From Gammaproteobacteria bacterium (GTDB lineage: Bacteria; Pseudomonadota; Gammaproteobacteria; GCA-002705445; GCA-002716945), in contig JBJKYD010000015.1 in assembly GCA_045561295.1 (NCBI GenBank), positions 1 through 49,888 of the forward strand: a stretch of DNA of 49,888 nt. The letters are read 5' to 3'. The notes below the pieces were generated by a model, which worked only from the letters and a program-made list of their open reading frames with translations, searched no databases and was not told the DNA's origin. Shown piece by piece: positions 6,618 to 30,228 of this stretch (its first letter is position 1; each line of letters begins with the position of its first letter). A program made the translations under genes and the position numbers.

Positions 6618-8280
6618 CTTTTACCTCATTCGAGAAGTATTTTAACACAGATTTTACAGGATTAGATGCTGCTTGACCTAGACCACATATAGAAGCATCC
6701 GACATTGTTTGACTTAAGTCTTCAAGCAGACTTATATTCCATTTTTTTTCTTTCATAAGCTCAGAAGCTTTGGATGTACCAGCTCTGCATGGAGTACATT
6801 TACCACAAGATTCATGTTTGAAAAAATCAATAGTTGTTTTTGCAGCATCCCTTGCTTTATCTTTATCAGATAGTATAACGACTGCGGCTGATCCTATGAA
6901 ACACCCATATTCTTCAAGTGTACCGAAATCTAAAGGGATATCATTCATGCTAGCTGGCAGGATACCGCCCGATGCTCCACCAGGAAAATAACCATAGAAC
7001 TCATGCCCATCTAACATGCCACCTGCATAATCATCTATTAATTCTTGAACTGTGATTCCAGCAGGAGCTAAATGTACGCCAGGTTTTTTTATTCTTCCAC
7101 TAACAGAGAAAGATCTTAGACCTTTTCTACCATTGACGCCTTGATTTGCGAACCAATCGGATCCCTTATCTAATATATCTCTTATCCAAAAAAGAGTTTC
7201 CATATTATGTTCCAATGTTGGTCTTCCAAATAAACCAACTTGTGCAACAAAAGGAGGACGGAGTCGAGGCATCCCTCTTTTGCCTTCTATAGACTCAATC
7301 ATTGCTGATTCTTCACCACATATATATGCACCAGCTCCTCGTCTCATCTCAATTTCTGGAATATCTGTGAAGTGGCTTTTGATTTTATCTATCTCCACTT
7401 CCATAATGTTTTTAACAGCCGGATATTCATCTCTTAAGTAAATATATATTTTATCAATACCTACTACTCTTGATGCTATTAACATGCCTTCAAAAAATCT
7501 ATGAGGATCTGATTCAAGATAGTACCTATCTTTAAAAGTACCTGGTTCACCTTCATCTATATTAATAGCAAGAAGTCTAGGAGCTTCTTGTTCTCTTAGT
7601 ATTCTCCATTTTCTACCAGCGGGAAAACCAGCGCCACCCAGACCTTTAAGTTCTGAGGCTTCAAGAACTTCAACAGCACTTTCATGAGAAATCTTCTCAT
7701 TAATAATTGATTCATAAATTTGATACCCACCATCAGAAATATATTTGTCTAGATCTATATAATCAGGAATCTCTGGATGAAATGCTTTGGCATCAACATT
7801 TTTTTTGATTTCTTTAAAAGTTGCATTATCGACGGGATTAAATTTCACGACAGCTGCTGGCGCAGACTGACATCTACCTATACAGGGAACTTTTTGGATT
7901 CTAACAGTGCCTTTGTAATAATCATCGAGAGTTTTTGCAAGCTCATTAGCACCATTCATTTCACACGTGACTGAGTCGCAAATTCGAACAGTAAGTGAAG
8001 GAGGTTTATCTGAATCAGTGTCTACTACATCAAAGTGATGATAAAAAGTTGCAACTTCATAAACTTCAGTTTGAGAAATACCCATGAGATTGGCTAGTGC
8101 TGTCATATAATTTTTTGTTATTGCACCTTGAGAATCCTGTATTTTATGAAGGTATTCAATCAGGTGATCTCTTCTGTATGAGGAGGTATCGAGGATAGTC
8201 TCAAGTTTACCTAAGACATCAAAATCAACTTTACGACCTCTCGGCCTCAGAGTAATTTTATTCTTGAGTGTTTTTTTCAT
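6601..8280 (-). CDS. Formate dehydrogenase beta subunit, NuoE-NuoF fusion (2Fe-2S + FMN/NADH + 4Fe-4S), Fdh1B-like
   Basis: CDSVTC..CIGRC, LKGLGGAGFP, DEGEPGTFKDR, GAGAYICGEE, ESCGKCTPCR, SICGLG; overlaps the alpha subunit start. Confidence 0.9.
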   Translation of the reverse strand: MKKTLKNKITLRPRGRKVDFDVLGKLETILDTSSYRRDHLIEYLHKIQDSQGAITKNYMTALANLMGISQTEVYEVATFYHHFDVVDTDSDKPPSLTVRICDSVTCEMNGANELAKTLDDYYKGTVRIQKVPCIGRCQSAPAAVVKFNPVDNATFKEIKKNVDAKAFHPEIPDYIDLDKYISDGGYQIYESIINEKISHESAVEVLEASELKGLGGAGFPAGRKWRILREQEAPRLLAINIDEGEPGTFKDRYYLESDPHRFFEGMLIASRVVGIDKIYIYLRDEYPAVKNIMEVEIDKIKSHFTDIPEIEMRRGAGAYICGEESAMIESIEGKRGMPRLRPPFVAQVGLFGRPTLEHNMETLFWIRDILDKGSDWFANQGVNGRKGLRSFSVSGRIKKPGVHLAPAGITVQELIDDYAGGMLDGHEFYGYFPGGASGGILPASMNDIPLDFGTLEEYGCFIGSAAVVILSDKDKARDAAKTTIDFFKHESCGKCTPCRAGTSKASELMKEKKWNISLLEDLSQTMSDASICGLGQAASNPVKSVLKYFSNEVKDVGKT

Positions 8281-8376
8281 GGTATTTATTTCCTTCCCTG
8301 GTAACTATACACAATTATATGTTCTTTATATAATGATTCAAGCTGACATAAATTAATATAATAAGGAGAGAGCATT

Positions 8377-8748
8377 ATGAGCCAAGAAAAAGTATATTCA
8401 GAAGATGAGATTAATAGCTACTTATCAAATAAATTACCCCATTGGTTTTATGAAAACGGATGGATAAGAAGAAAGTATAAAACTAGTGGATGGAAAGGAA
8501 CACTCATGGTGGTGAATACTGTCGGACATTTAGCAGAAGCAGCATGGCATCATCCTGACATTGCTGCATCATATGGTTTTGCAATAGTAAAACTTCAAAA
8601 TCATGCCGCTAAAGGTATTACTGATAAAGATTTTTTACTAGCTGAGAAAATAGAATCAGTTATTCAATGGCAGCCGTCCAAAGAGGACAACACTCTTGAG
8701 GGCACTCCAGATGATCCAAGATTCAAATATGTCAAATATGATGAGTAA
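8377..8748 (+). CDS. Pterin-4-alpha-carbinolamine dehydratase family protein
   Basis: AEAAWHHPD, H..KGITDKD; GGAG RBS. Confidence 0.88.
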   Translation: MSQEKVYSEDEINSYLSNKLPHWFYENGWIRRKYKTSGWKGTLMVVNTVGHLAEAAWHHPDIAASYGFAIVKLQNHAAKGITDKDFLLAEKIESVIQWQPSKEDNTLEGTPDDPRFKYVKYDE

Positions 8749-8751
8749 GTT

Positions 8752-9336
8752 TTAGAGAAATTTTTTTACAATTCTTGTTATTTCTGTACTTGGTATTCCA
8801 TTAGGTATAATTTTTTTTACTTGAAGCTTTTTATCAAGTACATAAATATTAGAACTGTGTTCAACTATATATCCTTTATTTTTTTGATCTGCAAATTCAT
8901 ATTTAGTTTTAAAAAATTTTGTTAAGGTATCAATATTTTCTTTATTAGAGGTTAACGCAGCGATCCTATTATCAAAAAAATCTACATATTCACGGACTTT
9001 TTTATAATCATCTCTGTCATAATCTACGCTTATGAACATAGGTAATACTTGGCTAGACTCATCGCCTAAACCTTTCATTACCCTTGCCATATCTAATACT
9101 GTAGTAGGGCAAACATCTGGGCAATGAGTATATCCAAAAAAAACTAAAAGAACTTTATTTTCATAACCATTAAATTTTGTAATTTCATTATTTTTATCGT
9201 AGAAACTTACTTTTTCAAACACACTAGACATGTCAGGAAATGCTTTTGAGATATCTGAATACGATTTAGTTGGACTTATAATCATTAGGAATAAAAGTCC
9301 CAGAAAAGCAATCTTGAATCTATGAAATATTTGCAT
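8752..9336 (-). CDS. SCO1/SenC copper chaperone
   Basis: FFGYTHCPDVCP, conserved His in YIVEHSS, N-terminal signal/anchor. Confidence 0.9.
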   Translation of the reverse strand: MQIFHRFKIAFLGLLFLMIISPTKSYSDISKAFPDMSSVFEKVSFYDKNNEITKFNGYENKVLLVFFGYTHCPDVCPTTVLDMARVMKGLGDESSQVLPMFISVDYDRDDYKKVREYVDFFDNRIAALTSNKENIDTLTKFFKTKYEFADQKNKGYIVEHSSNIYVLDKKLQVKKIIPNGIPSTEITRIVKKFL

Positions 9337-9453
9337 GACCTAATATACAATAACAAATAATAATATGTAATTAATTACCATTTTTTTTAGGGTAATTTTA
9401 AGTCTAAAATATTAGAATAATCTTATATTCTTATCTACTCTTTGTATGCATTA

Positions 9454-9487
9454 TTGCTTTGACAGACAAGCAAAGTGATACTAATAT
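9454..9487 (+). promoter_or_regulatory. Putative sigma70 promoter of the monooxygenase operon, overlapped by an inverted repeat
   Basis: TTGACA (9459-9464), 17-nt spacer, TAATAT (9482-9487); TTGCTT-N8-AAGCAA spans the -35. Confidence 0.5.
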
Positions 9488-9585
9488 TTACCCAATGGGA
9501 AAATTTATTCCTAGGGAACTCAGCTGAAAATGGCAAGATGCCAAGGGAAGTTGAGAAAACAAATTCGATTAATCTGGAGGTAAAG

Positions 9586-10818
9586 ATGATCGGACAAATA
9601 CTTTTAAACACACGTTACCTACTTGCACCAATACTAATTATAGTAGCCGGTGCTGGTGTCTTACTAGGCGGTATTATGGCTTGGTTAGGCGTTGTATTAC
9701 TTTTTGTAGGTCTACTAGTAGACATCGCTACAAAATTTGAAACAACAGGCGTTGGGTATGATGAAAACGGTGAAAGTCTTGGATGGCCTACATTCCAAAA
9801 CTTAACAATGTATTTCATGTTACCTATATTCGTACTATTCCAATTAGTAATGGCATGGAGACTTTATACATTCATGGCACTAGGCGGAGCAGAAGGCGCG
9901 GTAGTAATGGAATTAATTCCAGGCATTCTAGTAATGCACGAAGGAATTACAGCTGTTAACTTAATCGGTGCTACATTATCATCAGGTATCTTTATAGGTA
10001 TCGGTATTATTTACGGACATGAATTATCACATACCAAAGGTTTTGGTTTTGTAATTTCACGTTTGATGATGGCATTATCAGGTTCAGCACATTTCTGCTA
10101 TGCACACGTTTACAACCATCACCTAGAACTTGCTAGTGAAGATGATCCTGCAACTGCACCTCGCGGTCGTACAATTTATGGTCATTACCCACTATCATAT
10201 CTAGGACAATCTAAATTCTTATACAACATGGAAAAAGAAAGACTTTCAAGAATGGGAGTTTCATTCATTTCATGGCAAAACCGTTGGATTCGTGGTTATT
10301 TAATGGCAGTACCTACAGTAGCACTATTCTTTATGGCTGGTGGCTGGATAGGTATGGCTGTATTAGCTACAGTCTGGGGAATTTCAAACTTCGAATTAGA
10401 AGCATTGAACTACTTAGAGCACTACGGTTTAATACGTGTAAAAGATCAACCTATTGATTATCGCCATAACTGGGATAACTCAACATGTTTCACAGCATGG
10501 TTCTTCATCGAAATTGGTCGTCAAGCTGACCACCATGATCGTGGAGAAACACATTTCTGGGAACTTGAAAACGTAGGTTGCCCTAATACAGGTTGGGGAT
10601 ACTTTGTAGTATTCTTCATCGCACTTGTACCGCCAATATGGCACTGGTATATGCGTAAAAGATTAGCTGCATGGGATACTCATTTTGCTACAGACGAAGA
10701 AAAAGCGATTGCTGCAAGAATCAACAAAGAAGTTGGTTACGAAGGCACACCTTTCTCAGGCGATGTATTACAAGATGCTGGTAACGTTGACCTTGGCTTA
10801 AGATCAGCTAAGAAGTAA
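9586..10818 (+). CDS. Membrane-bound non-heme di-iron monooxygenase, XylM/CymAa/AlkB family (substrate unknown)
   Basis: His boxes HELSH, HVYNHH, NYLEHYG and RQADHH; DDPATAPRG; XylM-like C-terminus PPIWH..RLAAWD.HFAT..E; several TM segments. Start moved to ATG 9586, which follows a GGAGG RBS (410 aa). Confidence 0.9.
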   Translation: MIGQILLNTRYLLAPILIIVAGAGVLLGGIMAWLGVVLLFVGLLVDIATKFETTGVGYDENGESLGWPTFQNLTMYFMLPIFVLFQLVMAWRLYTFMALGGAEGAVVMELIPGILVMHEGITAVNLIGATLSSGIFIGIGIIYGHELSHTKGFGFVISRLMMALSGSAHFCYAHVYNHHLELASEDDPATAPRGRTIYGHYPLSYLGQSKFLYNMEKERLSRMGVSFISWQNRWIRGYLMAVPTVALFFMAGGWIGMAVLATVWGISNFELEALNYLEHYGLIRVKDQPIDYRHNWDNSTCFTAWFFIEIGRQADHHDRGETHFWELENVGCPNTGWGYFVVFFIALVPPIWHWYMRKRLAAWDTHFATDEEKAIAARINKEVGYEGTPFSGDVLQDAGNVDLGLRSAKK

Positions 10819-10843
10819 CTTACACCCAAGCAGTAAGTAAATT

Positions 10844-10877
10844 TGAAGGTGCCTGGATTTTAATCTAGACACCTTCA
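10844..10877 (+). terminator. Stem-loop after the monooxygenase (attenuator or mRNA-stabilising hairpin)
   Basis: TGAAGGTG-C-CTGGATT-TT-AATCTAG-A-CACCTTCA; weak U tail. Confidence 0.45.
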
Positions 10878-10948
10878 TCTTATTAAAGGGAAGGGGTTTT
10901 TAAGATATATGTCTTATCAATCAGCTAAATCTTATCTCGGAGAAAAAT

Positions 10949-11128
10949 ATGAAAGTAACTTATAATGCAGACGTTTGCACACACGCTGGGGAATGCGTAA
11001 AAGGTGCACCAAATGTATTCAAAGTGGTAGATGGTCAGTTTGTAATTGACACAGCTGCTGATAGTGAAGAAAATATAAGAGCAACTGTAGGTAACTGCCC
11101 GTCAGGCGCACTTGTAATCGAAGAGTAA
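10949..11128 (+). CDS. Small divergent 4Fe-4S/3Fe-4S mono-cluster ferredoxin (Fer4_19/YjdI-like), 59 aa; absent from the ORF track
   Basis: GGAG RBS; MKVTYNADVCTHAGECVKGAPNVFKVVDGQFVIDTAADSEENIRATVGNCPSGALVIEE*, with CxHxxxC...CPSGAL. Confidence 0.85.
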   Translation: MKVTYNADVCTHAGECVKGAPNVFKVVDGQFVIDTAADSEENIRATVGNCPSGALVIEE

Positions 11129-11165
11129 AAAAAGTAACTAACTAATTCATAATTAGGGGGTAATT

Positions 11166-11817
11166 ATGCCAATTGGAGATCACTTAAGAGACGTTATGGA
11201 CCTCTATGGAAGTCCAAAATGTCCTCACACAAATGCAGTGCTTATAGCTGCAGGTGAAAAAGGAGTTGATATCAACTCTCACGTAGAAGATGACTGGGGT
11301 CCTAGTTCATCAATCAGAAGCATGAGTCCACTAGGCATTGGACCGGTCCTTAAAGATCGTACAGCAGTAAACGTTGGTCTTAGTAGCATGTATGTCTTAT
11401 CTTGACGATAAAGGATTTGGACCATCACTAGTTCATAGAAATGGTGTAACCAGAGCAAGAATGTTCCAAGAGATCACTATAGCTCAACAAACTGATTGTT
11501 CCGATGATGCTGCATTAGCTGCTGCATTAGATCAATTAGAGGCTACACTAAATTCACCACTTGGAAACATGAAAGGTGACTATTGTGTAGGTCAATACAC
11601 ATTAGCTGATTGTGCTTGGGCAGGTGTATGTCAAGTTGCAACAAACATGGGCAAAGGCACTGCTGTAAGCTCACGTTCTGCTGTCAATACTTGGTTCGCT
11701 GCTGTTCAGTCACATCCATCAACAAGTAAAGAAGCTATCAACCCATTTAGCTGTCTATCTACTAAAGCTGATCATGATGCAAATAGTATGCGTGACGTAA
11801 GAATTAATACTGCTTAA
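11166..11817 (+). CDS. Glutathione S-transferase family protein (about 216 aa), split by one extra base near 11379-11381
   Basis: N-terminal part LYGSPKCPH..IAAGEKGV..SPLGIGPVLKD and C-terminal part MSYLDD..RARM..LDQLEATL..YCVGQYTLADCAW join into one GST if a single base is removed. Confidence 0.8.
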
Positions 11818-11842
11818 TTACAAAAGTATTAATCTAAGAATG

Positions 11843-11877
11843 GAAACCCCAGTTATTAATTGGGGTTTCTTTTTTTT
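11843..11877 (+). terminator. Rho-independent terminator
   Basis: GAAACCCCA...TGGGGTTTC followed by T8. Confidence 0.85.
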
Positions 11878-11941
11878 GTCAAAGTGATAATGTATTATCG
11901 AATATAACGAAACGCTTATACAACATTTTTTATATAGTTTT

Positions 11942-13042
11942 ATGAATATTTATAAATACTTATGGTTTTTTGGAACTAAACCACAAGATAGCGAAGCAAG
12001 ACTATTACCATCTGGTAAAAACTTAGAAGTCTCTCGCGATGAAACACTTTTGAATGCAGCTCTAGAGCAGGGTCTAGATTGGCCTCACAATTGTAAATTT
12101 GGATCTTGCGGTGAATGCAAGTGTCGTTTAGTTAAAGGTAAAATTAAACCCATGGTTGACTTTAGTGAAGCGCTCACAAAACAAGAATTAGCAGAGGATT
12201 ATATTCTTGCATGCCAATCACGGCTAACAATGGATTGTGATATTGAAGTAGAGTTGGGCGATCTCATTAGAGTTCCTGCTAGAACTTGTAATGCAAAAGT
12301 AAAAGCTACTGAAATGCTAACATCAGATATCATGTCTTTAACAATTGGCACTGATAGTGATATCCCTGAAGGTAAAGACAGACCAGGATTAGCAGGTATG
12401 TGGGCTGAACTATCTATACCAGGACTTGAACGTCCTAGATCATACTCATTTGCTAGCGCACCTCAAAATGAAAATAAAAATGAATTTACTTTTTTCATTA
12501 GGAAAGTACCAGGCGGCAAGTTTACCGAATGGCTCTTCAGTGATGACAGAGATCCTGATGAATGTGTCACTATAAATGGCCCATTCGGCACATTTTATTT
12601 AAGAGAAAAAGAAACTCCAATCGTGTGCATTGCAGGCGGTAGTGGATTAGCACCAATAAAAGCAATTTTAGAGGGTGGTGTTAACGATCAAATCAAAAGA
12701 GATGTTATTTTTCTATTTGGAGCGCGCACGCAAGCAGACTTATATTCATTAAAAGAGATAGAAGATATTAAAAATAATTGGAATAAGGACTCATCTTTTC
12801 AATTTATACCTGTTCTTAACATGGAACCAGAAGATAGTGATTGGAAAGGCGCAAGAGGAATGGTTACGGATTACTTTGAGCAAGAAGTAATTCCAAAACA
12901 AAATTTAGATATCAACGGGTGGCAAGCATATTTATGTGGACCTCCTCCGATGGTAGATGCTGCTGGTGTATGTCTCACTAAAAATGGTATTTCTGAAGAT
13001 GAAATCTTCTATGATAAGTTTACAGATTCTAGTAATTTGTAA
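11942..13042 (+). CDS. 2Fe-2S ferredoxin-FAD/NAD(P)H reductase, XylA/CymAb-type monooxygenase electron transfer component
   Basis: WPHNCKFGSCGECKC..LACQ, RSYSFAS, GGKFT, GPFG.FYLR, IAGGSGLAP, YLCGPPPM, FYDKF. Confidence 0.92.
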   Translation: MNIYKYLWFFGTKPQDSEARLLPSGKNLEVSRDETLLNAALEQGLDWPHNCKFGSCGECKCRLVKGKIKPMVDFSEALTKQELAEDYILACQSRLTMDCDIEVELGDLIRVPARTCNAKVKATEMLTSDIMSLTIGTDSDIPEGKDRPGLAGMWAELSIPGLERPRSYSFASAPQNENKNEFTFFIRKVPGGKFTEWLFSDDRDPDECVTINGPFGTFYLREKETPIVCIAGGSGLAPIKAILEGGVNDQIKRDVIFLFGARTQADLYSLKEIEDIKNNWNKDSSFQFIPVLNMEPEDSDWKGARGMVTDYFEQEVIPKQNLDINGWQAYLCGPPPMVDAAGVCLTKNGISEDEIFYDKFTDSSNL

Positions 13043-13172
13043 AAATTTGAAACAGCCCTTATTTATCAATAAATTCTTTACAAATCATTATATTTAGATT
13101 ATTTTATTTCTACGGTATGTGCATAATTTATATCACAATATCGTTAAATGCTAATATAAGAGGAGAGTAAAT

Positions 13173-13445
13173 ATGGGATTTCTATTCGGTAAGACAGCTC
13201 AAGGCACTTATGTCGTTGTAGCTTTCTGGATAGCGTGTTACTACTTCTTCAGCAGCATGTTCCCAATGTGGCACTTTGCACCAGGTTCAAACCCTGGACT
13301 TGCTGGGTGGCCTGTAGCATTACTTATTGGTACACTGTTAATTGTAGCTAATATGATAAGTGTTTATCTTTTCATAAAAGTTGCAGGTAACAGACCATGG
13401 GAATGGTTTGAAGATGGAGTCTACGGACCAGGAGACGAAGGGTAG
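13173..13445 (+). CDS. Small hypothetical membrane protein (2 predicted TM helices)
   Basis: Strong AGGAG RBS, two hydrophobic stretches, acidic Trp-rich tail RPWEWFEDG. Confidence 0.7.
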   Translation: MGFLFGKTAQGTYVVVAFWIACYYFFSSMFPMWHFAPGSNPGLAGWPVALLIGTLLIVANMISVYLFIKVAGNRPWEWFEDGVYGPGDEG

Positions 13446-13584
13446 AAGAATTGCAACGGAAGTTGTGATACTTTAGGAGTCTTAATACAAGGATTTTACG
13501 GGGGAAAGCTTAATTGATTTCAATACTGGACGTATGTCCCCAGCCATAAGACGTTATATATATATATAAATGAGGAAAAGTTAT

Positions 13585-15156
13585 ATGAAAACTTTAAAAA
13601 ATGATTGGAAGCTAGGAGCTGCCGTCGGGACAGCGCTGTCTCTTGGCTCTGCTGGCGCAATCGCAGGACCACACGGGTTCGATCTTCATAACGTGTTAAA
13701 TGGAGCATCAGCATCATTCGCTGGTACATCTATTGCACATACAGAAGATCCAGTATCCGCAGTGTTTGGTAACCCTGCAACGCTTGCACAATATTTCGGT
13801 GGTACTAACTTTATGTTTGGTGCTACTTTCTACATGCCACGTGCGCAAATGCGTCATGATGGTTCAGCTGGTTATGCTGTTACTAGAGGTAATAGTCTAA
13901 AGCTTGTAGTCAATGGCTCTGGTGTAACAAATGGTGATAATCCAGCGACTGCCTCAACTGAGACAGACGGCGGAGCTTCGCCAGGTGATACTGTAGATCA
14001 ATACTACGGTTTTGACTCAAGATCTGCACAAGATCTTTACGCTGTACCACAAGTTGCAGTAACACAAGATTTATCAGGTCTTGGTATACCTGTTGTACTT
14101 GGTGTTGGTGTAACAGCTACTAATGGTATTGGTGTTGATTATCAACACACATCAAACGCTATTGGTGCAGCAGCTGAACTTATTAATTTAGGTGTAAACG
14201 CTGGTATCGGTATGAAAATGTCTGACACATTAGACGTTGGTGTAGCTTTAACAATTACTTATGCAATGCTTGAAGCAGGAGTTACAGGCTCTAGCACACA
14301 AAAGCATGACTTAGGTTTTAGAGGTACAATCGGTGCGCGTAAGCATATGGGCCCAATGACTATTGGTATGTATTACCAAGGTGAACTTGAGCATCAATAT
14401 GCAAACTTACACGTAACAAGTAATCATGGAAGTACTCCATTTGATGAGCAGGATGGTGATTCAGATAGAGTAATCGCTGCCTCTGTACAAAACTTGCATG
14501 CAAGTGTGACTTGTAACGGTGATAACGGCACTGTATGTAGACAAGACTTGAAAGTACAACAACCTTGGAACATAGGTTTAGGTATGTCTATGGATATGGG
14601 TAATGGCATGTTAGTAATGGCTGACTTTACACATAAAGCATGGTCTGACGCTCATTTCTTTAATGAGTTCTACGATGATCAAAATGTTGTATCTATAGGT
14701 ATTCAAAAAACTATGGGTAACTTGAAGCTTCGTGCAGGATACGGATATGCAGATGATCCACTACTCAGCCAAGTTCAAGAGGGCGTTGAAGTTAAAACCA
14801 TTGGTGGTATAGATGTTCATGGTAATGCTTATACATCTCCAATGTACGGAATATTTATGTCTTACTTCCAAGCTATGGAAACACCTGTAATCTACAAGCA
14901 TAGATTAGCTGTAGGTCTTGGTGTTGAAAGCTTCTTGGGTGTTCCATTTTTATCATTGGACGCGCATGCAGCTGTTCAGCTTGAAGAAGATAAGTGTTTT
15001 GGTTCTGGTCAAACAGGATACTCAGGTGGCACAGGAGCTGCTGGCGGTACCGCACTTGGTGGTGGTCTAGCTGATGCTGGATGTACTGCATCTGATCACT
15101 CCAAAGCAACAGTTTCATCATTCCATATGGGTGGTGCTTTAACTTGGGCATTCTAA
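13585..15156 (+). CDS. FadL/TodX/XylN-family outer-membrane channel for hydrophobic compounds
   Basis: Signal peptide; GASASFAGTSIA..DPVSAVFGNPATL; LRAGYGY; amphipathic beta strands; C-terminal Phe. Start moved to ATG 13585, which follows GAGGA. Confidence 0.85.
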   Translation: MKTLKNDWKLGAAVGTALSLGSAGAIAGPHGFDLHNVLNGASASFAGTSIAHTEDPVSAVFGNPATLAQYFGGTNFMFGATFYMPRAQMRHDGSAGYAVTRGNSLKLVVNGSGVTNGDNPATASTETDGGASPGDTVDQYYGFDSRSAQDLYAVPQVAVTQDLSGLGIPVVLGVGVTATNGIGVDYQHTSNAIGAAAELINLGVNAGIGMKMSDTLDVGVALTITYAMLEAGVTGSSTQKHDLGFRGTIGARKHMGPMTIGMYYQGELEHQYANLHVTSNHGSTPFDEQDGDSDRVIAASVQNLHASVTCNGDNGTVCRQDLKVQQPWNIGLGMSMDMGNGMLVMADFTHKAWSDAHFFNEFYDDQNVVSIGIQKTMGNLKLRAGYGYADDPLLSQVQEGVEVKTIGGIDVHGNAYTSPMYGIFMSYFQAMETPVIYKHRLAVGLGVESFLGVPFLSLDAHAAVQLEEDKCFGSGQTGYSGGTGAAGGTALGGGLADAGCTASDHSKATVSSFHMGGALTWAF

Positions 15157-15203
15157 GTTAGAGAAAAGTATTTATATTACAATGATGTAATATAAAAGTA
15201 ATT

Positions 15204-15229
15204 AGAGGGAGGATTAGGTTCTTCCCTCT
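15204..15229 (+). terminator. Stem-loop between the channel gene and mtoX
   Basis: AGAGGGAGGA-TTAGGT-TCTTCCCTCT; no long U tail. Confidence 0.45.
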
Positions 15230-15267
15230 GATATTTAATATTAAATATAAAAAGGAGCGCGCAAATA

Positions 15268-16629
15268 ATGAAAAAACTTATATCAACTTTATATGGTATG
15301 TTGATGTCAGCTTTTCTTGCAGTAGCACTTGTACCAACACAAGCATTCTCAGATGAGACATGCATGTCACCATACATGGCTAAAATCGTAGGCCAAGAGG
15401 ACTACGTATATGTATGGACATTAGGTCAAGTGGGCGTAGGAGATGAACAGGATAAATTGGTAACTATAGCAGTTAATCCAAATTCTCCACACTACGGCAA
15501 TGTAATTGGACACGTTTCTGTCGGTGGACGTAATGAAGCTCATCATTCTGGTTTTACAGATGATAGACATTACCTCTGGGCAGCAACACTAGATACCAGT
15601 AAAATTTTCATTTTTGATGTTCATACAAATCCTAACAAACCAAAACTTCATAAAGTTATTACTAACTTTGTAAAAGCTTCTGGTGGAATTGTAGGACCTC
15701 ATACAACATATGCACTACCAGGAAGAATGATGATTTCTGGTCTTTCTAACAACCAAGACTTTGGTGGTAGAACAGCACTTGTTGAATATACAAATGATGG
15801 TACATATGTAGCTACATATCACATGCCACATGATGAAAACCTTTATGGTGCTACTAAAACAGGACAAATAGCTGATGGATACGGATATGATGTTCGTGCA
15901 TTACCACGTCGTAATGTTATGATCACATCTTCATTCACAGGTTGGAATAACTACATGATGAACTTAGGTAAACTCATGGGTGACTCTGATGCTATGAAAC
16001 GTTTTGGTAACACAGTAGTAGTATGGGATTTACATTCACGTAAACCTAAAAAAGTATTTGACGTACCAGGTGCACCGCTTGAAATTAGATGTGCATGGGG
16101 TTCACAAAATAACTACTGCTTCACTACAACAGCATTGACTTCACAAATCTGGTTGATTTATGAAAAAGATGGCGAGTGGCACACTGAATCTGTAGGAACT
16201 ATTGGTGATCCTGCAAAAATTCCACTACCTGTAGACATCTCTATTACAGCTGATGATCAACATTTATGGGTAAATACATGGAATGATGGCATGACAAGAG
16301 TATTTGATATTTCAAATCCTCACATGGCAAAAGAAGTGTACACACACAAAATTGGTGACCAAGTAAACATGCTATCTCAAAGCTGGGATGGAAAACGTGT
16401 ATACTTTACATCATCACTATTAGCTAACTGGGACAAAGCAGACGGACCAGAAAAAATGCCTCAGTTCTTCAAAGCATATCATTACAAAGATGGCAAATTG
16501 GAATTCCAATTCGCTCTTGATTTTGCTAAAGAAAAACTTGGTATGCCTCATCAAATGAGATTTGGTGCATATTCTTTATATGCTAAATCTCCAAAAGATG
16601 GAGCTAAAGTCGCAGAACTTTCTAAGTAA
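15268..16629 (+). CDS. mtoX: Methanethiol oxidase (SBP56/SELENBP1 family), periplasmic
   Basis: Signal peptide ending AFS followed by DETCMSPY; GRNEAHH, GPHT, GYGYD; SSFTGW and LLANWD carry the candidate TTQ tryptophans; followed by SCO-MauG as in known mto clusters. Confidence 0.93.
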   Translation: MKKLISTLYGMLMSAFLAVALVPTQAFSDETCMSPYMAKIVGQEDYVYVWTLGQVGVGDEQDKLVTIAVNPNSPHYGNVIGHVSVGGRNEAHHSGFTDDRHYLWAATLDTSKIFIFDVHTNPNKPKLHKVITNFVKASGGIVGPHTTYALPGRMMISGLSNNQDFGGRTALVEYTNDGTYVATYHMPHDENLYGATKTGQIADGYGYDVRALPRRNVMITSSFTGWNNYMMNLGKLMGDSDAMKRFGNTVVVWDLHSRKPKKVFDVPGAPLEIRCAWGSQNNYCFTTTALTSQIWLIYEKDGEWHTESVGTIGDPAKIPLPVDISITADDQHLWVNTWNDGMTRVFDISNPHMAKEVYTHKIGDQVNMLSQSWDGKRVYFTSSLLANWDKADGPEKMPQFFKAYHYKDGKLEFQFALDFAKEKLGMPHQMRFGAYSLYAKSPKDGAKVAELSK

Positions 16630-16692
16630 AGTTCTGTCTAAGTTATTAGACACCCTCATTGGTGGTTAATAACGTAAAATGGCTGAAACGTT

Positions 16693-16724
16693 GAGGCCGC
16701 TTGATCTAGGTTAAGCGGCCTTTT
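16693..16724 (+). terminator. Rho-independent terminator after mtoX
   Basis: GAGGCCGCTT...AAGCGGCCTT followed by T residues. Confidence 0.7.
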
Positions 16725-16778
16725 ACGTACTAAAATAAAGGTTGTTTGAATACCAAAATAAACTAAAATAAGACAGGG

Positions 16779-18770
16779 ATGTTAAGGAAGATAATATTTA
16801 TATGTATGTTACCTGTCGCTATCATGGCGCAGGAGTTGACGTACGACAATAAGGCACTAGCGCCAGGTTGGACCAATCTAACATTTACACCCCCAAGCGC
16901 ATCGTCCTATACATTGGCCAGCTTCTCACCTGCAAAAGATGGCGATGTAATTAATCAAAGAGAAGAAAATACTTCACTTCACGATATATATGATGACAAA
17001 GTTACATTGCTTAACTTTATGTACACCACTTGTACAGATATAAATGGTTGTCCATTAGCCACAGCAGTTTTTCATAAAATTCAACAAAAATTATCTAAAG
17101 ACCCAGCTATTGGCAAACAAGTCAATCTGGTAAGCCTTAGTTTTGATCCTAAAAATGATACACCAGAAATTATGAAACTTTATGGAGCAGGTACCGAGAG
17201 ACACCTCGTAGATTGGCAGTTTTTAACAACACAAAATGCAGATATCCTTGATCCAATACTTGATGGTTACCAACAAAGAATTATAAAAGAATATGATAGT
17301 GAAGGTAATTATATTGGTTCAATTTCCCATATTCTTAGAGTTTTTTTAATCGATAAAGATAAACAAGTTAGAAATATTTATAGCGTTTCTTTTCTTCATG
17401 CAGATTTAATCATTAATGATATAAAAACACTACTTGATCCAAATACTAATAATGGCACTTTGATTGCTGCAGCTGATACAAATTCAAATTCTAAATTAGA
17501 CGCTGTTAAATCTGAGACATCAAAGCTATCAAAACCAGGTGATAATAAAGATGGTTATTATGACAGTGATTATGAGAGTGCAAGTAAAAGTTTACACAGA
17601 ACTGGAAAACCTGCAGATTTATATACAATTGCCACAACTAAGCAACTTGGACTACCAAAGCTTAAGCTGCCTGAAGGGACAAATCTTACACCTGAAAAAA
17701 TTGATTTAGGTAGAAAATTATTTTTTGATAGAAGGCTGTCTCATACAGATACAATATCTTGTGCTATATGTCATGTACCAGAAATGGGCTTTGCACAAAA
17801 TGAATTAGCAACTGCTGTAGGCACTGAGGGAAGGTCTGTCCCAAGAAATGCTCCTACTGTTGTGAACGCCGCCTATTTATCTAGGTTCTTCCATGATGCG
17901 AGAGAAAATTCTCTTGAAGATCAAGTATGGGGACCTTTGCTAGCTCACAATGAAATGGCGAATCCGTCGCCCGGATATATTCTAAATAAAATTAAAAATA
18001 TACCTGATTACGAAGGCTTGTTTGAAACTGCATATGGTGGATCAGTAAATATGGATTCCTTATCCAGAGCACTTGCTGCCTACCAATACAGTCTGCTCAG
18101 CGGTAATTCACCATTTGATAAGTGGTACTATAATAACGAATCAAGCGCAATTTCTAAATCTGCTAAGCGAGGCTTTGAAATCTTTAAAGGTAAGGGCAAT
18201 TGTATGGCATGTCATTTAGTAAACGATGAATATGCATTATTTACAGATGAGAAACTTCATAATACTGGAATAGGATTTAAATCTTCTATGTATGTTGAAC
18301 CTCCGCGCAAAAAAGTAGTATTAGCACCAGGCATAGAGGTCGATGTTGACACGTCTGTCTATGCGAATGACTCAAGATTTAAAAACGAAATTAAACCTAA
18401 TGACTTAGGTCTTTATTTAATTACTCAAGATCCTGGTGATCGTTGGAAAATAAGGACACCATCATTGAGAAATGTTGAATTATCAGGTCCTTATATGCAC
18501 AACGGTCAATTAGCTACATTAAAAGACGTTGTTGATTTCTACAATGAAGGCGGCGTAAGAGAAGTTGGTAAGATGAAAAATGAAACCATTAGTCCTCTTA
18601 TGATGCCTCTCAACTTGAGTAAACAAGAAGTGGATGATGTAGTAGAGTTTCTTAAAACGCTAACTGGTTCAAACATGGACACACTAGTTATGGATGCTTT
18701 TGCGGCCCCAATAGGGGAAGTATCACTGCAGGACCCAAACTGGTTTCATGATAATAAACTGAAATATTAA
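16779..18770 (+). CDS. SCO/SenC domain fused to a MauG-like di-heme cytochrome c peroxidase (MtoX maturation)
   Basis: FMYTTCTDINGCP plus ISH (SCO); CAICH and CMACH heme motifs, LGRKLFFDRRLS, RNAPT, TPSLRNV..GPYMHNG. Confidence 0.9.
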   Translation: MLRKIIFICMLPVAIMAQELTYDNKALAPGWTNLTFTPPSASSYTLASFSPAKDGDVINQREENTSLHDIYDDKVTLLNFMYTTCTDINGCPLATAVFHKIQQKLSKDPAIGKQVNLVSLSFDPKNDTPEIMKLYGAGTERHLVDWQFLTTQNADILDPILDGYQQRIIKEYDSEGNYIGSISHILRVFLIDKDKQVRNIYSVSFLHADLIINDIKTLLDPNTNNGTLIAAADTNSNSKLDAVKSETSKLSKPGDNKDGYYDSDYESASKSLHRTGKPADLYTIATTKQLGLPKLKLPEGTNLTPEKIDLGRKLFFDRRLSHTDTISCAICHVPEMGFAQNELATAVGTEGRSVPRNAPTVVNAAYLSRFFHDARENSLEDQVWGPLLAHNEMANPSPGYILNKIKNIPDYEGLFETAYGGSVNMDSLSRALAAYQYSLLSGNSPFDKWYYNNESSAISKSAKRGFEIFKGKGNCMACHLVNDEYALFTDEKLHNTGIGFKSSMYVEPPRKKVVLAPGIEVDVDTSVYANDSRFKNEIKPNDLGLYLITQDPGDRWKIRTPSLRNVELSGPYMHNGQLATLKDVVDFYNEGGVREVGKMKNETISPLMMPLNLSKQEVDDVVEFLKTLTGSNMDTLVMDAFAAPIGEVSLQDPNWFHDNKLKY

Positions 18771-19351
18771 TGATGAAGAAATATTTTATTATATTTCTTG
18801 TCATTTTCCTGATAACACCTATACATCAAGCCCAGTCAGAAAAATATCCTCTCCCTACAAAAATGCTTATGGACCCAATGCCAGCTGCAGATATGGCACC
18901 AGAGATAAATGTTATTGACATGAATGGTGAAAAAAGAACTTTACAAGACTTAAAAGGTAAATTTGTTTTAGTTAATTTCTGGGCAACTTGGTGTAACCCA
19001 TGTAAAGTTGAGATGCCATTATTAGAGAACCTTCATCAAACACTTAAAAGTGATAAATTCACAGTTCTTGGTCTTCATGTTGGCCCAGGACCAGAAAACA
19101 TAGAAGAATTTAAAAAACTCATGCCAATATCTTTCCCAATATATGTCGATATGGAATTAGAGGTTAATTGGGGAGTTCCAGGCCTGCCTACAACCTTCCT
19201 TTTAAATCCAGAGGGAAGATTAATATACAGAGCAGTAGGTAAAAGAGAGTTTGCATCGGACGACATGATCAACTTCATAAGAAATCAAATTGAAGGCTAT
19301 AAGTTCGCTCAAAAATATGAAGGCAAGCTTGTGCCTCCTATGATGAGGTAA
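18770..19351 (+). CDS. TlpA/ResA-family thiol-disulfide oxidoreductase
   Basis: VNFWATWCNPCKVEMP, GLPTTFL. Confidence 0.9.
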   Translation: MMKKYFIIFLVIFLITPIHQAQSEKYPLPTKMLMDPMPAADMAPEINVIDMNGEKRTLQDLKGKFVLVNFWATWCNPCKVEMPLLENLHQTLKSDKFTVLGLHVGPGPENIEEFKKLMPISFPIYVDMELEVNWGVPGLPTTFLLNPEGRLIYRAVGKREFASDDMINFIRNQIEGYKFAQKYEGKLVPPMMR

Positions 19352-19356
19352 TTTTA

Positions 19357-20148
19357 CTATATAACAAACAGCTCCATAAGTTCTTTTCCAGACTTAGTCC
19401 CGAAATACCTCACAGGCTTTGACGAATTAATTATACTTTTATTTAGTATTTTATTAATTTTTATTTTATAGAAATTAAAAAAGGTTAAATCTGTTTGATT
19501 TGCTCTAATATATTCCCGACATATAGATTTATCTCTTGTAAAAATTGTTCCTCTACGAGCATTATGACAAAAGTTATTACCAATTTTTCCTAGAACAACT
19601 ACAGAACCTGATATTAGCTCGAGACATGAACCTGACCCAATGTTTCCACCTATTATAATATTCCCTCTTCTCATTCTTACAATAGAGTTATCTCCAACAT
19701 TTTTTTGCACGTATATAAACCCATCAACAAATCCTTCATTCATGCTTGTAGGCAAACTACAAAACCCATCATCTGCATTACCTAGAATATGTACAGACCC
19801 TCCTTTCATTCCTGAGCATGCATTTTTACCAGCATTACCATTTAGTATAATCTCCCCACTACACATGCCCTTTGCAAGTCCAAATCCAACATTTCCAAAA
19901 ATAGTAATTTTTTTGTCTTCGAGATTATTACCAATATTATCTAGATGTTTGTTTGAATTACTAATTATAATATCTTTGAAGTTATTACCCGATACATTGA
20001 ACAAAGTAGACAACTTATATCCTTTAGTTCCATAATTTACCCGGAGGTTTTTAATTTTTGACAAACTAGACGTTTTGATTTTCGAAAGCCAGCTCATATC
20101 CAGTCTTTGTTTATTTTTGATTTTGCATTTAAAGACTAAAGGTTTCAT
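19357..20148 (-). CDS. fhcC: Formyltransferase/hydrolase complex subunit C
   Basis: GXGXG beta-helix repeats (GNVG, GNAG, MKGG, RMRRG, ARRGTI); operon context. Confidence 0.9.
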   Translation of the reverse strand: MKPLVFKCKIKNKQRLDMSWLSKIKTSSLSKIKNLRVNYGTKGYKLSTLFNVSGNNFKDIIISNSNKHLDNIGNNLEDKKITIFGNVGFGLAKGMCSGEIILNGNAGKNACSGMKGGSVHILGNADDGFCSLPTSMNEGFVDGFIYVQKNVGDNSIVRMRRGNIIIGGNIGSGSCLELISGSVVVLGKIGNNFCHNARRGTIFTRDKSICREYIRANQTDLTFFNFYKIKINKILNKSIINSSKPVRYFGTKSGKELMELFVI

Positions 20149-21041
20149 TTTAATATCTTTCTTAAATGAAAGTGATGCGGTCCTAGCTTTCCACCATAAT
20201 TACCAGCTGAGACAGACACAATATCTTTTTTATATTTAGATTTAGATATTGCAACCAATGATTCACGTATACCTTTATCAATATCCTCTTTGGTTAAGCC
20301 GTTTATAACTATCTCCATTACACAATTAACACTTTTATGCAATTTGCTACCGGTAATGCCGCTTAGAGATGGACAAAATGCGTCGTTTGTTGATGCTATC
20401 AATGCTTTGTACTTAGAGCCAACTTTAGATCCAGACCTGACAACTCCACCTGGGAATGGGGTGATAATGTTACCAATTTCACTCATTACATTCACTGCTA
20501 TTTCACATGCTGAAAGACATGAAGCTCTATTTTTTGACAACAATATAAAATTACCACCACCAATTGCTGGGACACGTGCAGTCATCTCCTCGCACATAAA
20601 TTCTCCATCCATCACTGGTATTCTCCAAAATCTTTTTTTATCAATACGTTTTGATATTTGATAACCATCGCCAAAATATTTTAAATTTTTTCCAAGGGGA
20701 ATCATATCTTCTCCATCAAGACCTGAAAACAGTGCAGTAGTTGGACATGTCAAGATGCACTGCCCAGCCCTTGTCTCAAGCTGTTTCTCTAGTTGACTCC
20801 GTGACATTGAGAAGAGAAGTATGGCGTACCCTGGTCTTCCATCTGGCGTTTCTTTGGCTTTCAACTGTCTTTCTATACCAGCTTCTATTCCGCATGCAAT
20901 AACAGATGTTGCAAATCCGGTAAATGATGCAGCTGCATTCTTAGCCCACTTTATATTATCAGCTGTTACAATTATTCTACTTGCTTTCATATTAAAAGCT
21001 TCAGCAAAAGTATTCTCAATAGCTAACCCATTAATTTTCAT
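20145..21041 (-). CDS. fhcD: Formylmethanofuran-H4MPT N-formyltransferase (Ftr)
   Basis: NTFAEAF, GFATSVIACG.EAGIE, TPDGRPG, GGVVRSGSKVGSKY, AGNYGGKLGPHHF. Confidence 0.95.
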   Translation of the reverse strand: MKINGLAIENTFAEAFNMKASRIIVTADNIKWAKNAAASFTGFATSVIACGIEAGIERQLKAKETPDGRPGYAILLFSMSRSQLEKQLETRAGQCILTCPTTALFSGLDGEDMIPLGKNLKYFGDGYQISKRIDKKRFWRIPVMDGEFMCEEMTARVPAIGGGNFILLSKNRASCLSACEIAVNVMSEIGNIITPFPGGVVRSGSKVGSKYKALIASTNDAFCPSLSGITGSKLHKSVNCVMEIVINGLTKEDIDKGIRESLVAISKSKYKKDIVSVSAGNYGGKLGPHHFHLRKILK

Positions 21042-22693
21042 GATATTCTTTTCCTGCTACATTTAACTTCATTTATATCAGATCCAATTACCTCTGACAT
21101 TTCATCATTACTGATAGAGTAGTTAGGCAATGCAATAGTATGGTATTTATCAAAATATTTTTTAAGCTTTTTCTCAATAGTAGCATCATATTCGGGCTTA
21201 ACGACTTGTGTTTTACCCCATGTGTAGTTTTTTATTTCACCATCTTTAACTACTACAACTCCATCTTTAATAACATGCGTTGGGCTTGCAAACATCTCTT
21301 CTACATCTCTAATATTGCTATCATAGATCGTTATGTCAGCATCAGCCTCTTTTGAGAGGGAGCCTTTATTTGTCAGACCTAAGATCCTAGCAGGTGCAGA
21401 CCGAGTCATTGTTGCAATTTCCGATAATGTATATTCTCTCTTTATGTCTTTTAAAATAGTATGTTTTGAAATATCTACTGAAAGTTGATCTAGCAAATTA
21501 TCTCTGAATGACTTATTCATAAGTAGTTTTATTAAATGAGGGTATGATGTAAATGGGGCTCCATTAGGATGGTCTGTAGTAAGAAATATTTTATCTGGGT
21601 CTTCTGTCAAAAGAAATGTTTCAAGCCCAATTGCCCACTGTAGAGCATTTACAAAGCTCTGATCTGTATATTTAAACGGAACGACACCACAGCCAGCCTC
21701 ACATTCAATATCCATACAAAGCCATTTGTCTGGATGAGCATGACTATGATTTGCATGTTGTTTCATGCTATCACCAGACATTGTAGCTGTTTGTCCAAAC
21801 AAAACTTGGCCAACATCACATGTCAGATTTGGTATTTTATTTATGTAGTCAGTTATTTCCGCAGAGGCTGATGAAAAGTTTCGATCTCCATTATTACCAT
21901 AGCTATGAAATTGAATATGAGTAATATGCACAGGTAATCCCTCAGCAGCTTTTATGGTTTCAATCGTTGATTTAAAATTTCCAGGGACGCCTAGGTTACT
22001 GCAGTGAACATGTAAAGGATGTGGCACGCCTAATTCATAAACAGCTCTTGCGAGTAAACGGACTATTTTACGCGGGGTTATCTTATACCTGACTGAATTT
22101 TCATCAACATTCAGTGCTCGTTGATTAAACTTAAAAGCATTTATTCCGCCCGGATTAACAACTTTTATGCCTATACATTGAGTTGCTTTTAATATGAATG
22201 CTACGTAATCATTAATCTCTGATTGATGAGCTCCTCTTGAAATTAGATCTAATAGGAAATCATCATTACCAAGAAGCGCATAACCGCCTTTATCTATGAA
22301 TGGCGTATCAGCCATTTCTGAATGCGACTGTCTAGCATTTATCGGAAGCACAGCTGGTTCAAAACAGGATGTATAACCCATTTTAATATATTGAAGCCCA
22401 GTTTTAAGTGTACTTGGAATAAAATCTGCAGTTAAATCATAGTCTCTATCACTGTTGTTATGAAATTCCTGTAGCATTAATCTTGCTATGTTTACCTTTC
22501 CGCCACCTATATGTGTGTGTAAATCAATTGCACCTGGCATAATAATTTTATTCTTGCATTCGATAGTTTCAGATATTTTTTCATTTAATTTTTCGACAAT
22601 TTTTCCATCTTTAACATAGATATCTTTCTTCTTGTTGAAAATTTTATTTATAGGATCAAAAATCTGACCATTTTTTAAACATAGGGTAGTCAT
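21038..22693 (-). CDS. fhcA: Formyltransferase/hydrolase complex subunit A (amidohydrolase)
   Basis: PGAIDLHTHIGGGKVN, HPLHVHCSNLG, TTDHPNG, NALQWAIGLE. Confidence 0.95.
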   Translation of the reverse strand: MTTLCLKNGQIFDPINKIFNKKKDIYVKDGKIVEKLNEKISETIECKNKIIMPGAIDLHTHIGGGKVNIARLMLQEFHNNSDRDYDLTADFIPSTLKTGLQYIKMGYTSCFEPAVLPINARQSHSEMADTPFIDKGGYALLGNDDFLLDLISRGAHQSEINDYVAFILKATQCIGIKVVNPGGINAFKFNQRALNVDENSVRYKITPRKIVRLLARAVYELGVPHPLHVHCSNLGVPGNFKSTIETIKAAEGLPVHITHIQFHSYGNNGDRNFSSASAEITDYINKIPNLTCDVGQVLFGQTATMSGDSMKQHANHSHAHPDKWLCMDIECEAGCGVVPFKYTDQSFVNALQWAIGLETFLLTEDPDKIFLTTDHPNGAPFTSYPHLIKLLMNKSFRDNLLDQLSVDISKHTILKDIKREYTLSEIATMTRSAPARILGLTNKGSLSKEADADITIYDSNIRDVEEMFASPTHVIKDGVVVVKDGEIKNYTWGKTQVVKPEYDATIEKKLKKYFDKYHTIALPNYSISNDEMSEVIGSDINEVKCSRKRIS

Positions 22694-23949: not shown

Positions 23950-24011
23950 AAATTATTTTACATCAATAATAAATAACTTTACATGCAAAAACATTAATAT
24001 ATTCTATTTTA

Positions 24012-24953: not shown

Positions 24954-24962
24954 GAGATTTTC

Positions 24963-28731: not shown

Positions 28732-28746
28732 ATATTGAAATGTAAT

Positions 28747-29622: not shown

Positions 29623-29664
29623 GCTACGTTCGTTTATTAATAAACATAAATATAGGAGATAATA

Positions 29665-30177: not shown

Positions 30178-30194
30178 TCATATCTGATTATGTT

Positions 30195-30228
30195 AGAAAG
30201 AGCTGGCTACTTGCCAGCTCTTTTTTTT
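30195..30228. terminator. Terminator between the convergent fae and orf17 genes, probably bidirectional
   Basis: AGAAAGAGCTGGC-TACTT-GCCAGCTC followed by T8; overlaps the orf17 stop codon. Confidence 0.8.

Follow-up and report, generated by a model that had tools for sequence, protein, structure and literature searches.

Dimethylsulfide (DMS), a gas of relevance to climate, is the main natural sulfur gas leaving the sea, and its consumption by bacteria sets the amount that escapes. The conversion of DMS, NADH and O2 into methanethiol and formaldehyde is known from DmoA/DmoB of Hyphomicrobium sulfonivorans, a soluble flavin-dependent two-component enzyme in which DmoA is luciferase-like. In the excerpts available from a June 2026 review, DmoA is named as the sole known DMS-to-methanethiol enzyme, and DsoB (a multicomponent monooxygenase), Tmm and DdhA are described as using O2 or an electron acceptor to consume DMS (PMC13360808); these three belong to other protein families than the one treated here, and their product is dimethyl sulfoxide (DMSO) and not methanethiol. 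DmoA was found to be rare in seawater (<0.7% of bacteria in one coastal study; excerpts of PMC9327192), and the available text of a study on Methylophaga, the best-known marine DMS consumers, reports neither dmoA nor ddh in their genomes (PMC6548844). The first DMS step of Methylophaga “might be catalysed by a novel enzyme” in the words of the 2022 study (PMC9327192), and the gene for the DMS step “remains unidentified” in those of another excerpt (PMC9563715). Here, we describe a block of nine genes at positions 9586–19351 of a 49,888-nt stretch of gammaproteobacterial DNA (hereafter the window, to which all coordinates given without a locus label refer), in which the gene of a membrane monooxygenase (MO) of the AlkB/XylM superfamily stands upstream of a gene for methanethiol oxidase (MtoX).

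The known systems share different parts of this block. The mto clusters of Hyphomicrobium sp. VS and Methylophaga thiooxydans contain genes for MtoX, a SCO1-MauG fusion and a TlpA-like protein in the same order as in the window, whereas here these genes are joined to an upstream monooxygenase module; furthermore, the M. thiooxydans cluster has genes for persulfide dioxygenase, sulfide:quinone oxidoreductase and SulP, none of which follows the mto genes here. The xyl system of plasmid pWW0 combines a membrane di-iron hydroxylase of family PF00487 (XylM), which hydroxylates a methyl group, with a 2Fe-2S/FAD/NAD reductase (XylA), and its operon includes the FadL-family channel XylN. In contrast to the present block, the xyl operon holds benzyl alcohol and benzaldehyde dehydrogenases, and the block adds a ferredoxin, a protein of glutathione S-transferase (GST) fold and a small membrane protein with two transmembrane helices (2-TM), and neighbours MtoX. 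The AlkB/AlkG system resembles MO in fold family, histidine motifs, membrane location and the expected dependence on O2 and NADH, but its carrier is the rubredoxin AlkG, whereas neither a rubredoxin nor alkane-pathway genes were found in the window. With DmoA/DmoB, the likeness lies in the reaction that we propose, and the proteins are unrelated. On balance, we lean towards the block being an oxidation route for DMS, or for a very similar small methyl thioether, that would carry DMS to methanethiol and is joined to formaldehyde oxidation. What we propose as new, within a known superfamily, is a clade whose iron site is changed, whose partners are new and whose substrate would be new; full-text searches of a limited library found no publication that connects AlkB-like enzymes with DMS or mtoX.

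The gene families were assigned by Pfam and NCBIfam profile scans. As the initial annotation had it, the nine genes form a single co-oriented block, all on the + strand and at the positions it gave, which is flanked by formate dehydrogenase genes (3861–8280) and by the tetrahydromethanopterin (H4MPT) pathway (19357–37911). Its observation that alcohol or aldehyde dehydrogenase, beta-oxidation and ring-cleavage genes are absent also agreed with the Pfam scan of window open reading frames (ORFs) of at least 100 aa, in which CoA ligase/acyl-CoA synthetase and rubredoxin were likewise not found. The first gene of the block, MO (9586–10818, + strand), encodes an integral-membrane di-iron monooxygenase of the AlkB/XylM superfamily (PF00487, 5.6e-27, 95.5 bits against a cut-off of 29.7). 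Its sequence matched the solved AlkB structures 8sbb (6.3e-29) and 8f6t (5.5e-26) and has the HELxH, HxxxHH, NYxEHYG and DHH motifs in common with AlkB. The protein was 27% identical to XylM of pWW0 over nearly the whole length and 30–35% identical to the plasmid AlkBs across only the C-terminal 55–65%, and no NCBIfam model matched it. Among 1.84 billion representatives, one 50%-identity cluster was found at 613 bits and the next full-length relatives were at most 38% identical. The orthologue cluster of MO has 2,784 member sequences in public data, where proteins of this type are labelled “alkane 1-monooxygenase”.

The phylogeny with AlkB and XylM that the initial annotation had suggested was built as a quick maximum-likelihood tree (LG+G4, short search) of 111 rows, comprising 87 clade members from the fetched loci, XylM, two AlkB-type plasmid proteins and 21 representatives. 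In this tree, where the forks between deep groups are not settled, the MO clade was monophyletic (87/87 rows) with a Shimodaira-Hasegawa-like approximate likelihood ratio test (SH-aLRT) value of 100 and a stem of 1.23 changes per site, and it stood as a discrete clade apart from XylM and AlkB, separate also from the group of XylM plus P0034. In the available excerpt of one study, AlkB is described with nine iron-binding histidines in four motifs, called “invariant and indispensable” (PMC10110569). Eight iron-ligand histidines (H145, H149, H174, H178, H179, H279, H316 and H317) were kept in all 111 rows. Position 313, the first histidine of the last HxxHH box, was found to be glutamine in 87 of 87 clade rows and histidine in 24 of 24 outgroup rows, and two pairwise alignments, one with an AlkB structure and one with XylM, agreed on Gln313 in MO and on histidine in both of the others. 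XylM thus keeps all nine histidines, whereas MO carries eight together with Gln313, and a His-to-Gln swap at an iron ligand is relevant to the chemistry of AlkB-type enzymes. MO differs also from AlkB in the strict sense, which goes with a rubredoxin and alkane-pathway neighbours, as the carrier in the block is a Fer4_19 ferredoxin, and it differs from DmoA in being a PF00487 membrane protein, so that it would be an analogue of DmoA and not a member of its family. Judged from its sequence, MO is an AlkB/XylM relative with a predicted altered metal site that falls outside AlkB proper and probably outside the XylM subfamily. The earlier designation as a XylM/AlkB-type enzyme therefore stands for the superfamily, by PF00487 and the AlkB structures, but not for AlkB proper and probably not for XylM.

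The co-occurrence of the MO clade with mtoX and fae was scored in a class sample of 400 genomes besides the source genome (G000), with MtoX called at an E value of at most 1e-100. The MO clade was found in 15 genomes and MtoX in 30; both were present in 13, MO only in 2, MtoX only in 17 and neither in 368. MtoX was thus present in 13 of the 15 MO-clade genomes as against 17 of the 385 others. The 15 MO genomes belong to 11 families, and MO carriers hold MtoX in nine of these. Of the 399 genomes scored for Fae, 56 hold it; among the 15 with MO, 12 do. Among the Fae-positive genomes, MO was found in 11 of 23 with MtoX versus 1 of 33 without it, and among the Fae-negative genomes in 2 of 7 versus 1 of 336. 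Because the link of MO to MtoX survives this split, MO follows MtoX rather than formaldehyde oxidation as such. Furthermore, in the methylotroph genus of genome G001 (37 genomes) MO was present in three, MtoX in the same three and neither of them in the other 34, and when 15 further genomes were picked across the tree, MtoX was above the cut-off in 14. These results together bore out the co-occurrence with mtoX and fae that had been predicted.

The gene order around MO was compared in the best 80 loci out of 229 relatives found across species-representative genomes (loci, that is, fetched stretches, are labelled L and genomes G). The close orthologues comprise 19 loci with 86–100% identity; 11 of them are of sufficient length, and each of these has the complete block, and the other 8 end before the position of mtoX. 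Since all 11 sufficiently long close-relative loci keep it, the arrangement is not chance. In G017, the genes for MO, reductase, MtoX and SCO1/MauG follow one another on one strand, and in G356 MO is followed by MtoX; these genomes represent two further families on the deepest branches of the MO clade. The mto genes were located 4–8 kb from MO in L058, mtoX was 9–23 kb from MO in G441, G448, G449, G150, G317, G001 and G439, and in several genomes the two were hundreds of kilobases apart. A distant group of 45 loci (59–67% identity) has the GST-fold gene following MO in 23, usually with ferredoxin and reductase, and the channel gene follows in several.

In the route that we propose, DMS would enter through the FadL/TodX-like channel, and electrons from NADH would pass through the XylA-type reductase, and perhaps the small ferredoxin, to the membrane di-iron MO, which would hydroxylate one S-methyl group of DMS. 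The resulting CH3-S-CH2OH is a hemithioacetal and would break down into methanethiol and formaldehyde. Methyl C-H hydroxylation is taken as the known chemistry of the MO family because of the similarity to AlkB and XylM, the eight of nine histidines and the XylA-like reductase. Conserved members of the module also include the Cys-type GST-fold protein, whose possible task is to exchange thiols, either on the hemithioacetal or on methyl-thiol mixed disulfides, and the small 2-TM protein, which could be an accessory subunit. In the second stage, for which the MtoX family was assigned by profile and the chemistry follows published work, methanethiol would be converted to formaldehyde, sulfide and H2O2 by periplasmic MtoX, with SCO1-MauG, TlpA and perhaps a divergently read SCO1 as its maturation factors. 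In the third stage, the genes of which were observed, Fae and the H4MPT enzymes would oxidise formaldehyde to formate, and formate dehydrogenase would oxidise formate to CO2.

The second-stage enzyme is encoded at 15268–16629 (+ strand) and was identified as a periplasmic copper methanethiol oxidase by NF052453 (1.3e-213, 708.9 bits against a curated equivalog cut-off of 650) and PF05694 SBP56 (3.2e-46). Its N-terminal signal-like stretch stops before DETC, and DETX is the N-terminus of mature Hyphomicrobium MtoX (quoted in PMC5739008). The identification as MtoX thus has the curated cut-off, a signal-like N-terminus and the SCO1 and MauG neighbours in its favour. It is followed on the same strand by a SCO1-MauG fusion of a copper chaperone and a di-haem peroxidase (16779–18770; CCP_MauG 5.3e-49, SCO1-SenC 2.9e-15) and by a TlpA/ResA-type periplasmic thiol:disulfide oxidoreductase (18770–19351; AhpC-TSA 2.1e-20, with ResA and TlpA NCBIfam hits). 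SCO1-MauG is the usual maturation partner of MtoX, and the fusion adjoins mtoX in M. thiooxydans too, as given in the available text of PMC6548844.

Between MO and mtoX stand the predicted electron-transfer and transport partners, all on the + strand. The gene at 10949–11128 encodes a 59-aa ferredoxin with a single [4Fe-4S]-type cluster (PF06902 Fer4_19, 6.8e-17), which is likely the electron shuttle, and a ferredoxin gene is found 3' of MO in many clade loci. The XylA-type NADH:acceptor reductase (11942–13042) contains a plant-type 2Fe-2S Fer2 domain (4.1e-15), FAD_binding_6 (6.9e-08) and NAD_binding_1 (1.1e-18); it was 38% identical over 351 residues (7e-82) to the pWW0 protein at the XylA position, scored 83 bits with a NAD(P)H-flavin-reductase model and was found as a single copy in G000. 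It is followed by the gene for the 90-aa 2-TM membrane protein (13173–13445). Homologues of 67–71 aa occupy the same place 3' of the reductase in L032/L093, L045, L046, L058, L061, L069, L089, L097 and L099, which span three other subclades; the conserved motif FKVAG[NE][RK]P[WFY]xW is common to these homologues and the window protein, which may be an accessory subunit. The predicted complex of MO with the 90-aa protein gave scores of 0.03 and 0.01 against a mark of 0.32, which speak neither for nor against binding. The gene at 13570–15156 encodes an outer-membrane beta-barrel protein with a signal peptide, which by itself gave weak Pfam hits (OMP_b-brl 6e-4), no PF03349 hit at E 0.01 or better and no Protein Data Bank sequence match at E up to 1. 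It was 27–40% identical to the outer-membrane proteins of the modules at other loci, including 28% to that of L058, and the L058 homologue scored 53.4 bits on PF03349 FadL/TodX (cut-off 29.7). The earlier call of a FadL-type channel draws on the L058 homologue and not on the window protein itself, which is probably a FadL/TodX-type channel for a hydrophobic substrate.

The GST-fold gene (11166–11817, + strand) is frameshifted in this assembly and is read as two ORFs with weak GST_N and GST_C hits. The break is a one-base insertion near 11379–11386, and the extra base is absent from the relatives L039, L004 and L008 and from every RNA contig crossing the site (four runs). Because the frame is intact in the relatives and in all RNA contigs at the site, the frameshift is private to this assembly or is a single-cell assembly error. 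The intact form has 216 aa in L039, and its N-terminal cysteine is conserved in 17 of 18 aligned homologues. The closest solved relatives are SspA-like (E 4e-4) and the closest named ones are the non-catalytic SspA and FzlA (25–35 bits). Both halves from the window fell below the GST_N and GST_C cut-offs, and the L058 homologue was slightly above them (GST_N_3 26.0 against 22, GST_C 22.1 against 20.7). The protein atlas gave its own cluster of 1,389 members (“hypothetical”) and, beyond that, only generic GST or SspA clusters. The GST of the initial annotation is accordingly read as a divergent, SspA-like protein of probable GST fold.

Sequences matching the block were found in marine RNA libraries. 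Thirteen RNA-labelled runs from four studies hold 42–55% of the sampled words of the block. Four runs of four studies gave contigs (at least 90% alike) for MO, ferredoxin, GST, small protein, channel and MtoX. The per-contig word depth was hundreds to thousands for the covered genes; such depths cannot rank genes, and RNA libraries may hold DNA. Low depths were observed for the flanks (0–4.5 at 8300–9490 and 19416–20200), the reductase (1.4–54) and SCO1-MauG with TlpA (0–151). These depths were not taken as evidence on operon structure, and parts without cover prove nothing; DNA carry-over alone would not easily give such uneven depth.

Several observations weigh against the DMS route. The association of MO with MtoX gave a Fisher p of 1.3e-14, a value that overstates the case because kin are not independent. 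Two MO genomes had no MtoX match (G104, 80% complete; G353, 97% complete), 17 of the 30 MtoX genomes were without MO, and the picked genome G446 gave only a 394-bit MtoX match, below the cut-off. Outside the family of the window, mtoX was within the fetched 10 kb in 1 of the 45 distant loci; the proposed synteny with mtoX, seen in the 11 close loci and in G017 and G356, is rare and mostly loose among the distant relatives. G000 has a second MO copy (C13:51706–52884; L086 8710–9903), which is 71% identical, keeps Gln313 and lies alone in a housekeeping context beside genes for L31, an ammonium transporter and a fatty-acid hydroxylase. It belongs to a paralogue group (16 loci, 70–79% identical, without partner genes; public cluster of 1,042 members) that is the sister group of the window orthologues and is found in the same genomes. 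In addition, pathways for hydrocarbons and epoxides typically include FadL-type channels and GSTs, and DMS is expected to cross membranes without a channel. A rival explanation is that the substrate of MO is some other compound that is small and hydrophobic or volatile. It might be a methyl halide, a methylarene, a short alkane or an alkene; for an alkene such as isoprene, the GST would open the epoxide. The sharing of genomes between MO and MtoX would then reflect only a common lifestyle of marine bacteria that feed on phytoplankton volatiles. The known substrates of AlkB and XylM are hydrocarbons, and the public label, the channel of a kind that hydrocarbon operons have, the GST next to MO in the distant loci and the scarcity of mtoX there would all fit this explanation. 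Against it stand the lack of alcohol and aldehyde dehydrogenase, CoA ligase and beta-oxidation genes by Pfam in the window, the SspA-like and Cys-type nature of the GST-fold protein, which is not that of a typical conjugating GST, the position of MO directly beside MtoX in G017 and G356, and the MtoX link that survives the Fae split. Within one methylotroph genus, moreover, MO tracks MtoX (3/3 versus 0/34) and not methylotrophy. We consider a substrate of this kind unlikely.

AlkB-type enzymes are also able to oxidise thioether sulfur, which would turn DMS into DMSO, and this too counts on the opposing side. MO might then act on organosulfur compounds without releasing methanethiol, either by S-oxygenation of DMS or by detoxifying methanethiol, dimethyl disulfide or mixed disulfides, with the Cys-type GST handling the thiol or disulfide products. 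The MtoX link fits any methyl-sulfur role, the conserved GST cysteine suggests thiol/disulfide chemistry, and an identical MO copy is found beside a molybdopterin oxidoreductase in some genomes. However, DMSO would not feed MtoX or Fae, so that the gene order of G017 and the formate dehydrogenase and H4MPT flanks would be left unexplained, and neither a DMSO reductase nor any further DMSO pathway was seen in the Pfam scans of the window. It would also leave the organisms concerned, as is stated for Methylophaga in the available text of PMC6548844, with no other known route from DMS to methanethiol. A role of this kind appears to us quite improbable.

The response of Methylophaga to DMS bears on the same question. 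In the available parts of the study of Kroeber and Schaefer (2019), M. thiooxydans was grown on DMS versus methanol, and a “fatty acid desaturase”, a flavin reductase and a FadL-like porin were among the DMS-induced genes (PMC6548844). These three labels are those that automatic annotation would give to MO, the reductase and the channel. On the opposing side, this match is one of annotation labels only, and the relevant genomes have 2–3 PF00487 genes each, so that the desaturase label is ambiguous; the locus tags MDMS009_226, _61 and _906 could not be mapped onto the module, as the tags are not in genome order. To the same side belong the report of Boden et al. (2010), as given in the available text of PMC6548844, that DMS monooxygenase activity was not found in extracts of DMS-grown M. 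thiooxydans, for which a methyltransferase was proposed, and the 5.3-fold increase on DMS of MtdA, an enzyme of the tetrahydrofolate pathway (PMC6548844, same excerpts). The authors of that study read the desaturase as a lipid-repair enzyme and suggested that “a hydrolase or monooxygenase” might exist. In line with their reading, MO could be a lipid desaturase or hydroxylase for membrane repair or adaptation when MtoX imposes H2O2 and thiol stress; the Pfam family is named FA_desaturase, and a stress role would explain both the co-occurrence and the co-induction with MtoX. But MO resembles the AlkB structures and has the NYxEHYG motif of AlkB-type enzymes, a lipid enzyme would have no use for a XylA-type reductase of its own and an outer-membrane channel, and more than half of the MtoX genomes do without MO. 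We consider a lipid role very improbable.

With the oxidation of DMS to methanethiol as the preferred reading, the clade becomes a candidate for the DMS-to-methanethiol enzyme of Methylophaga and of abundant streamlined marine Gammaproteobacteria. It would be a membrane DMS monooxygenase with a di-iron site of eight histidines plus glutamine, served by a dedicated ferredoxin, GST-fold protein and small subunit. Its expression would take place in surface seawater, and it would form an unrecognised oceanic DMS sink that is counted as alkB; for this wider proposal we find the scales evenly poised. If it is true, counts of alkane degradation genes should leave out the 2,784 members of the orthologue cluster. 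With Gln313 as a diagnostic mark, this concrete set of candidate genes makes the question directly testable and offers a marker for DMS-consuming bacteria.

The composition of the module varies among the relatives. Genomes of the G001 genus have the module as one uninterrupted run: MO, globin, ferredoxin, GST, reductase, small protein, channel and globin. Modules of the Methylophaga type have two truncated-globin genes on either side of the electron-transfer genes, and a CbbQ/NorQ-type AAA ATPase and a von Willebrand factor A (VWA) protein are read divergently from MO (L058 6773–9690, 11247–11609 and 15236–15730; also L045, L097, L099 and L089). The window has neither the truncated globins nor the ATPase-VWA pair. 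NorQ and NorD have a role in metal insertion, and by analogy the globins might deliver oxygen and the ATPase/VWA pair might insert metal in the Methylophaga-type modules. In L048, L049, L050, L055, L059 and L065, MO stands beside a CDGSH protein, a molybdopterin oxidoreductase and a FAD/NAD/4Fe-4S reductase. Two identical MO copies per genome were found in L048/L053, L049/L056 and L051/L059; one copy is in a ferredoxin-GST-reductase module, and the other adjoins the CDGSH protein, a 784-aa molybdopterin oxidoreductase and the FAD/NAD/4Fe-4S reductase.

The source genome G000 has a size of 1.03 Mb at 92% completeness, two relatives (G192 and G352) have 1.1 Mb at 99%, and the G+C content of the window is about 32%. 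All three genomes hold Fae, the H4MPT pathway and formate dehydrogenase, and neither a pyrroloquinoline quinone (PQQ) methanol dehydrogenase (0/3) nor hexulose-phosphate synthase (Hps; 0/3) was found in them. The MO-MtoX block is therefore the obvious feeder of the formaldehyde-oxidation genes, and since these two enzymes were not found, the gain from the route in this genome of about 1 Mb is probably energy and not cell carbon.

The formaldehyde-oxidation genes begin directly downstream of the block with FhcC, D, A and B (19357–23949, - strand; GXGXG, FTR, FTR_C and Amidohydro_3), followed by MtdB (24963–25853; Mpt_N), Mch (26894–27862; MCH 1.1e-123) and Fae (29665–30177; Fae 2.2e-64), with cofactor-synthesis genes interspersed up to 37911. 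On the other side, the NAD-linked formate dehydrogenase (3861–8280, - strand) consists of a molybdopterin subunit (Molybdopterin 3.1e-74) and a NuoE/NuoF-like subunit (Complex1_51K 1.3e-37; NuoF and NuoE families). A SCO1/SenC copper chaperone gene (8752–9336, - strand; PF02630, 2.3e-35) is read divergently from the block, keeps its place in close relatives and may deliver copper to MtoX; L089 likewise has a SCO1 homologue close to the module. A gene for pterin-4a-carbinolamine dehydratase (8377–8748), whose place is kept in all close relatives, separates the formate dehydrogenase genes from SCO1.

Signals that match a consensus only were noted on the + strand of the block. A promoter-like site (TTGACA-17-TAATAT, 10/12 matches) is located 5' of the MO gene at 9459–9487, and the listed RNA contig pieces start at about 9537. 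A terminator-like hairpin with a 13-pair stem, followed by the T-run TTTTTTTT, was found after the GST gene at 11842–11870, and another with a 13-pair stem lies between the channel gene and mtoX at 15201–15232. The remainder of the window is the dcw cell-division cluster, at the head of which an FtsZ-family gene (42082–43227) is located between mraW and ftsI, the usual place of this gene being the end of the cluster.

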